Shown here in pieces: positions 29,585-29,886 of a stretch of 64,000 nucleotides of DNA. The position numbers and the translations under genes were made by a program. Position 1 is the stretch's first letter. Each line of letters begins with the position of its first letter. The stretch lies in NCBI RefSeq assembly GCF_003334405.1, contig NZ_QOWM01000003.1; one strand, written 5' to 3'. The DNA is from Escherichia coli. Lineage in GTDB: Bacteria; Pseudomonadota; Gammaproteobacteria; Enterobacterales; Enterobacteriaceae. Under the pieces are notes generated by a model that saw only the letters and a program-made list of their open reading frames with translations, did no database searches and was not told where the DNA came from.

Positions 29585-29742
29585 TACAACCTCTTCTCTT
29601 TTTATGTTCGCTTAATCGTAGCGGCAATATGCGCTGAAGCAAGCGACTCATTCCGAAAAAGCACGAATATCGACATAGTTAGGCGCTGTTTAACTAACGC
29701 ATGCTAGTTTAATGACATAAGGTAGGTGAAACGGAGATTGGA

Positions 29743-29886
29743 GTGAAAAAGTTTCGATGGGTCGTTCTGGTTGTCGTGGTGTTGGCTTGCTTGCTGCTTT
29801 GGGCGCAGGTATTCAACATGATGTGCGATCAGGATGTACAATTTTTCAGCGGAATTTGTGCCATTAACCAGTTTATCCCGTGGTGA
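29743..29886 (+). CDS. mgrB: PhoQ-inhibiting small membrane protein MgrB (47 aa)
   Basis: Not in track (<60 aa). GTG start; translates to [47 protein letters not shown]. Confidence 0.85.

Follow-up and report, generated by a model that had tools for sequence, protein, structure and literature searches.

The window, the whole stretch of 64,000 nucleotides analysed here, is E. coli K-12 DNA. The 1001 bp at 29300-30300 are 100% identical to MG1655, in which mgrB is annotated at this place, and the same stretch was found in 5,424 of 5,426 complete E. coli genomes. Comparison of the whole 64 kb with record NZ_CP032667.1 revealed 10 scattered SNPs, none of them near mgrB. The gene is therefore that of E. 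coli K-12 (b1826; WP_000714550.1, PhoP/PhoQ regulator MgrB), with zero differences in 29300-30300 and with the yobH-mgrB-yebO neighbourhood of MG1655. Its neighbours are kdgR (plus strand), yobH (minus strand, divergent) and yebO (plus strand). The features of the locus, by window position, are as follows.

29345-29584, minus strand: yobH, 79 aa, the divergent neighbour that shares the regulatory spacer
29615-29642, minus strand: yobH promoter, with -35 TTGCTT (29642-37), 16 nt and -10 TACGAT (29620-15)
29643-29661, minus strand: equivalent of the Salmonella 'yobG box 2' (reverse), aligning to the footprinted GTTTTTAGGAATGATTCAC, with core TTTMRGAAT running from 29658 to 29650
29676-29692, plus strand: predicted PhoP box 1, TAGTTA-GGCGC-TGTTTA, in direct orientation, 12 nt upstream of the -10
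29702-29710, plus strand: extended -10 (TG at 29702-03, C, TAGTTT at 29705-10), conserved and aligning with Salmonella TAATTT
29707-29712, plus strand: second GTTTAA, lying on the -10 hexamer and not a PhoP half-site (matrix registers -2.2 and -7.1 bits)
29716-29742, plus strand: putative 5' UTR of 27 nt, its start at C29716 taken from the Salmonella alignment
29733-29736, plus strand: Shine-Dalgarno GGAG, 6 nt before the GTG
29743-29886, plus strand: mgrB coding sequence, GTG start, 47 codons, TGA stop, from the ORF list and the K-12 annotation
29704-29892, minus strand: antisense ORF of 62 aa that overlaps all of mgrB and would be listed at a 60-aa minimum

The first-pass annotation, made from the letters and a list of ORFs, had read a GTG-initiated 47-codon ORF as mgrB. 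This identification was borne out by the family match, the K-12 annotation and the codon periodicity. The product matched the NCBIfam MgrB equivalog NF007635 over its full length (residues 1-47 align to profile positions 1-47, with a score of 89.9 bits where the cut-off is 40), and alignment to the annotated gene gave the 100% identity to MG1655 described above. The frame is under coding selection; among 78 indel-free mgrB orthologues, nucleotide diversity at codon positions 1, 2 and 3 was 0.19, 0.10 and 0.42, respectively, and the start codon was GTG in 77. An alignment of 11 genera showed K2, K3, R5, W6, W20, Q22, D29, D31, F34, F35, S36, G37, I38, C39, N42, P46 and W47 to be invariant, with C28 at least 90% conserved. 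The protein has the expected form, being about 47 aa long with an N-terminal basic stretch, a hydrophobic segment and a conserved C-terminal (periplasmic) tail that contains Cys28 and Cys39; MgrB homologues bear Pfam PF13998. Several frameshifted MgrB variants with MGRSG... N-termini and altered C-termini are present in a public protein collection (P0051, P0053, P0055, P0056), in line with published frameshift alleles from clinical E. coli and from E. coli selected with trimethoprim.

The 47-aa MgrB peptide sits in the inner membrane, N-terminus inside and C-terminus outside, and it binds and inhibits PhoQ, thereby closing a negative-feedback loop (Lippa & Goulian 2009). Both the inhibition of PhoQ and the rise in PhoP-dependent transcription upon deletion of mgrB have been reported for this exact E. 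coli gene (PMC2789325). It is an established feedback brake on PhoQ/PhoP, the loss of which leads to colistin resistance in Klebsiella and to trimethoprim tolerance in E. coli.

For the regulatory region, mgrB loci were collected from 80 Enterobacteriaceae species and their upstream regions aligned, giving a phylogenetic footprint over 81 species. Directly upstream of the gene, the conserved promoter element is an extended -10 of the form TG-n-TAnnnT at 29702-10: T29702 and G29703 are found in 99% of species, T29705 in 90% (73/81), and A29706 and T29710 in 100% (81/81). No -35 match exists at 17-nt spacing, where the hexamer is GGCGCT. TTTAAT (29708-13) was a first guess for the -10 and was dropped in favour of the conserved element. 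In the Shine-Dalgarno sequence, G29733 and G29736 are invariant, with G29734 and A29735 in 94% of the 81 species. Transcription probably starts at about C29716, by homology to the start that has been S1-mapped in Salmonella; the predicted E. coli leader of 27 nt is one base longer than the 26 nt of Salmonella, owing to an extra base at 29725. Searches of the mgrB region returned no Rfam family, even at E-values of up to 1.

The string that the first-pass annotation had quoted as the region upstream of mgrB, ctgtttaactaacgcatgctagtttaatga, lies at 29686-29715. The two GTTTAA copies that it had noticed there do exist, at 29688-93 and 29707-12, and its doubt about their spacing was well founded; they stand 19 bp apart from start to start, leaving a 13-nt spacer in place of the canonical 5 nt. 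However, they are not in the leader, as had been stated. Both are upstream of the putative start at C29716 and hence in the promoter. Single GTTTAA hexamers occur at chance frequency in the window (35 found, 36.8 expected). Pairs 5-25 nt apart number two against 0.30 expected, a count reached in 4 of 100 shuffles, and the second pair of the window is the known PhoP box of yoaE.

A closer inspection revealed that the two copies are of very different kinds. The first is contained within TGTTTA (29687-92), a half-site that is invariant in all 81 species and that forms the promoter-proximal half of a direct repeat with TAGTTA (29676-81). An 11-bp distance between the terminal A's of these half-sites gives the canonical arrangement with a 5-nt spacer. 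The second copy overlaps the -10 hexamer TAGTTT (29705-10). The columns of 29707-12 are kept in few species (G in 10/81, T in 13/81, T in 20/81, A in 11/81 and A in 13/81), and T29710 alone is conserved. At 29705-12 most genera read TAACCTGG, the Klebsiella form, in which the T-A-n-n-n-T of the -10 is retained. Among the aligned species, TAGTTTAA occupies these positions only in Escherichia sp. E1V33 and E. coli itself; even E. albertii departs from it (TAATTTAT). Since the second copy is unconserved outside Escherichia, the GTTTAA pair is not a functional unit, and of the tentative PhoP box proposed by the first-pass annotation the first copy stands and the second does not. The likeness of the two copies is incidental and Escherichia-specific. 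The spacing did not fit because the wrong two hexamers had been paired and not because the operator is unusual; repeat-spotting by eye led to this pairing, as the degenerate first half-site of the true operator becomes obvious only from comparative data.

Box 1 matches the consensus (T/G)GTTTA-N5-(T/G)GTTTA at 10 of 12 positions. Its first half-site, TAGTTA, is degenerate, with 4/6 consensus positions; each of the 81 species has either TAGTTA or CAGTTA here, corresponding to submotif S2 of Zwir. GTTA (29678-81) and GTTTA (29688-92) are essentially invariant, with T29680 in 79/81 species, and the columns of the spacer are variable (0.55-1.28 bits of information). A position weight matrix (PWM) was built from 36 DNase I-footprinted Salmonella PhoP boxes (Zwir 2012 Table 1, PMC3335776), from which both yobG/mgrB boxes were excluded, yobG being the old name of mgrB. 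With this matrix 29675-93 scores +10.0 bits, which ranks 27th of 127,964 positions and is within the range of the footprinted sites (3.3-22.5 bits); the orthologous Salmonella site scores 7.6. This register holds in 76 of the 80 species, the median score being 7.8 bits. The matrix search thus recovered a PhoP box at the locus, but in another register than the one first proposed, the 19-mer registers that use the GTTTAA pairing all being negative (-1.4, -2.2 and -7.1 bits).

The matrix alone is unspecific, as 26 positions in the window outscore box 1. Nor did a consensus scan for KGTTTA-N5-KGTTTA with at most two mismatches discriminate, returning 28 matches in the window against 14.8 expected. 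Specificity for box 1 came, beyond the matrix, from its position, geometry and conservation. The window contains 28 sites of at least 9.9 bits; a TAnnnT is found 11-13 nt downstream in three of them, and a start codon is also within 100 nt only at mgrB. Activating PhoP boxes are in direct orientation, 12 or 21-23 nt upstream of the -10, and activation is lost when a box is moved to a distance of 7, 17 or 28 nt, whereas boxes at 12, 23 and 33 nt from the -10 function (Zwir 2012, PMC3335776). The gap between the end of box 1 (29692) and the start of the -10 (29705) is 12 nt and fits this activating geometry.

Published observations on the E. coli promoter bear on the same point. PhoP-dependent activity of PmgrB and binding of PhoP-P are known from the literature, in which PmgrB-yfp is a standard PhoP reporter and EMSA shows that PhoP-P retards a fragment of E. 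coli PmgrB. Insertion sequences in E. coli put the PhoP site upstream of -46, and an IS5 at -46 has been described as downstream of the PhoP-binding site. Position -46 corresponds to window position 29697, that is, after box 1 and before the second GTTTAA. The PhoP operator of E. coli mgrB is thus most probably 29676-92, a placement that carries the Salmonella footprint over base for base.

Two other roles for the second GTTTAA were weighed. One is that it serves as an Escherichia-specific auxiliary PhoP half-site on the -10, damping mgrB at high PhoP-P. PhoP boxes that overlap the -10 of PhoP-activated promoters are documented, including the repressing box of Salmonella ugtL (Zwir 2012, PMC3335776), and the AGTTTA of E. 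coli and Escherichia sp. E1V33 matches a half-site at 5/6 positions. However, this hexamer has no partner 11 bp to either side, where TAACGC and ATAAGG are found, and the E. albertii sequence shows the half-site already lost. Strong self-occlusion is also made less likely by the reported status of PmgrB as the brightest PhoP reporter, and we consider such a damping role highly unlikely. The other, for which the odds are poorer still, is that both GTTTAA copies are half-sites of a single PhoP operator with an unusual 13-nt spacer. They are exact copies in a pair of a kind that exceeds expectation in the window, but a 19-bp period would separate the half-sites by about 1.8 helical turns, whereas the direct repeat bound by PhoP-P has an 11-bp period. 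The poor conservation of the second copy (10-20 of 81 species per base), the negative scores of the unusual-spacer registers and the IS5 described as downstream of the binding site all count against it, and PhoP bound over the conserved -10 would block RNA polymerase instead of activating transcription. A canonical box 1 upstream of an extended -10 is therefore the reading retained here.

The first-pass annotation had also remarked that mgrB is invisible to the ORF track, and this proved correct. The ORF lister has a default minimum of 60 aa, so that the 47-aa gene is unseen unless this threshold is brought down to 20 aa. A longer ORF of 62 aa on the opposite strand (29704-29892) is the sole one displayed by a track with a 60-aa minimum. 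That this antisense ORF is the real coding gene in place of mgrB merits virtually no credence, as it is broken by internal stops in 66 of 81 other species, the substitutions are most frequent at the third codon position of mgrB, equivalent to the first position of the antisense codons, and it has no family match while mgrB matches its own equivalog model; the stops and the codon-position diversity refute it as a gene. In this way, ORF tracks with a length threshold miss a 47-codon GTG gene and display a spurious longer ORF in its place.

The promoter was compared with that of Salmonella enterica yobG, an 'architecture II' promoter (Zwir 2012). In Salmonella, box 1 (ACAGTTACTCCTGGTTTAA) has been DNase I-footprinted as a direct, activating site 12 nt from a -10 of TAATTT, and there is a single PhoP-dependent start, which S1 mapping placed 5 nt beyond the -10, so that the leader is 26 nt long (Zwir 2012, PMC3335776). 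The promoter of the one Salmonella locus fetched aligns to E. coli free of gaps, placing box 1 on 29675-93 and the -10 on 29705-10. The two promoters are alike in the direct box, the 12-nt distance and the weak TAnTTT -10, and both lack a -35 and have a short leader, about 26 nt long. They differ in that the -10 is TAGTTT in E. coli and TAATTT in Salmonella, and the second GTTTAA exists in E. coli because of this difference. They also differ in the second box. The Salmonella reverse box GTTTTTAGGAATGATTCAC scores 6.1 bits, whereas its E. coli counterpart CTTTTTCGGAATGAGTCGC is degenerate, at -6.6 bits. The E. coli promoter may therefore work with one box, as an 'architecture I' promoter. More generally, it may differ in detail from that of Salmonella, as the matrix suggests no function for the E. 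coli counterpart of the second box footprinted there. The phoP and mgtA promoters, which are of 'architecture I', resemble mgrB in having a single direct (T/G)GTTTA-N5-(T/G)GTTTA box 12 nt from the -10 that replaces the -35, but their first half-site is a full GGTTTA, in contrast to the TAGTTA/CAGTTA of mgrB.

The PhoP box of yoaE (mgpA), which encodes a CorC/CNNM-type Mg2+-related transporter, lies elsewhere in the window, at 36727-36745 on the plus strand (ATGTTTAACTCCCGTTTAA, 13.9 bits), 33 nt upstream of the yoaL start. It is a GTTTAA-type direct repeat like that of mgrB, but both of its hexamers are strong and the spacer is the canonical 5 nt. An identical sequence has been bound by PhoP-P in EMSA and DNase I footprinting in Shigella flexneri, and mutation of phoPQ raises yoaE 7-fold (PMC5775216). 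This rise implies that PhoP represses yoaE, unlike its activation of mgrB.

Taken together, we hold with high confidence that the locus is the known PhoQ/PhoP negative-feedback module, with mgrB transcribed from box 1 and an extended -10. The identity of the ORF, the geometry of the box and the -10, the conservation and the matrix score are direct observations. Upon stimulation by low Mg2+, cationic peptides or acid pH, PhoQ would phosphorylate PhoP, and a PhoP-P dimer would bind head to tail on the direct repeat TAGTTA-N5-TGTTTA (29676-92). In this position it would occupy the place of the missing -35, 12 nt or one helical turn upstream of the extended -10, and could recruit RNA polymerase for transcription from about C29716. 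The short leader, with its GGAG Shine-Dalgarno and GTG start, would then allow MgrB to be made, and PhoQ would be inhibited; the action of MgrB on PhoQ is here taken from the literature. The mgrB locus and its PhoP-activated promoter are all already known, and no open question has been made testable here save a minor one, on a conserved block on the yobH side.

Upstream of mgrB, 79 of 80 loci have a yobH homologue on the opposite strand, at a distance of 156-168 bp in 78 of them. The yobH promoter is of the sigma-70 type and well conserved among the 80 species, with TTG (29642-40) at 99-100%, A29619 at 99%, T29615 at 98% and T29620 at 86%, and yobH has a Shine-Dalgarno GAGG at 29593-90. The sequence GCCGCTAC around the yobH -10 has what we take to be a loose resemblance to a sigma28 -10. 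A PhoP-matrix match on the plus strand over the -10 and start region of yobH (CTTTTTATGTTCGCTTAAT, 29598-29616, 11.2 bits) is unconserved and so probably due to chance.

The block itself, TTTMRGAAT, reads as ATTCC(G/T)AAA on the plus strand at 29650-58 and is 98-100% conserved in the 80 species. It adjoins the yobH -35, and 23 nt separate its end from the yobH -10, the distance seen in rstA/ompX-type 'architecture III' promoters, with direct orientation for yobH. The corresponding Salmonella sequence is yobG box 2 (GTTTTTAGGAATGATTCAC), footprinted by PhoP in reverse orientation (Zwir 2012, PMC3335776). The matrix finds no PhoP-like sequence at 29643-61 on the minus strand of E. coli (-6.6 bits); the median across species is 2.3 bits, and at least 6 bits is reached in 15/80. 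Moreover, conservation of the block peaks in GGAAT, which would be the spacer of a PhoP site, and this is a misfit for such a site. In Pseudescherichia vulneris (L078), the sole species without yobH, the block has decayed (GGTTCCCTGAAA) and box 1 is intact, though this is a single case on a long branch; there, the mgrB promoter follows directly on kdgR and its terminator.

One reading of these observations is that TTTMRGAAT is a core element of the yobH promoter, possibly one conferring bidirectional PhoP control on yobH and mgrB, or else the operator of a regulator shared by the Enterobacteriaceae. This is speculative and, on balance, rather unlikely. If true, yobH and mgrB could be a bidirectionally PhoP-controlled pair. 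The work of Banda et al. speaks against PhoP control of yobH. Genomic SELEX lists a peak for the RNA polymerase-sigma28 holoenzyme in the mgrB/yobH spacer (PMC5493296).

Downstream of mgrB, yebO has an extended -10 of its own (TGgTAGAAT, 29927-35, plus strand), which is strongly conserved and lies in the 74-nt spacer between the two genes. A promoter proposed by a scan in the 3' end of mgrB (29864-92) is not the conserved one. No convincing intrinsic terminator was found between mgrB and yebO, where there is only a short T-run at 29892-97; a hairpin at 29938-55 was rejected as a terminator, having no U-tract and overlapping the yebO Shine-Dalgarno. Some read-through from PmgrB into yebO is possible.

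Other matches in the window lie further from the locus. The mntP leader contains a Mn2+ riboswitch match (yybP-ykoY, RF00080; 32952-33048, minus strand), which a default Rfam scan misses because its 41.6 bits are just under the gathering score of 45. Between yobD and mntP there is an 80-nt palindromic stretch (33173-33254), both strands of which match an unrelated miRNA hairpin model. The window's best match to the PhoP matrix, 16.2 bits at 33210-33228 (minus strand), is inside this palindrome, and another of 12.5 bits is found at 33142-33160 (minus strand); they are about 165-180 nt and 95-115 nt, respectively, upstream of the 5' end of the riboswitch match. These matches may be due to chance or may be sites of another regulator, such as MntR. 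Rfam also reports a cspA-type thermoregulator match at 30898-31358, spanning yobF-cspC (annotated cspE in the record), as well as the overlapping pair SraC/RyeA (minus strand) and SdsR/RyeB (plus strand) at 15265-15409 and sroD at 50407-50492.
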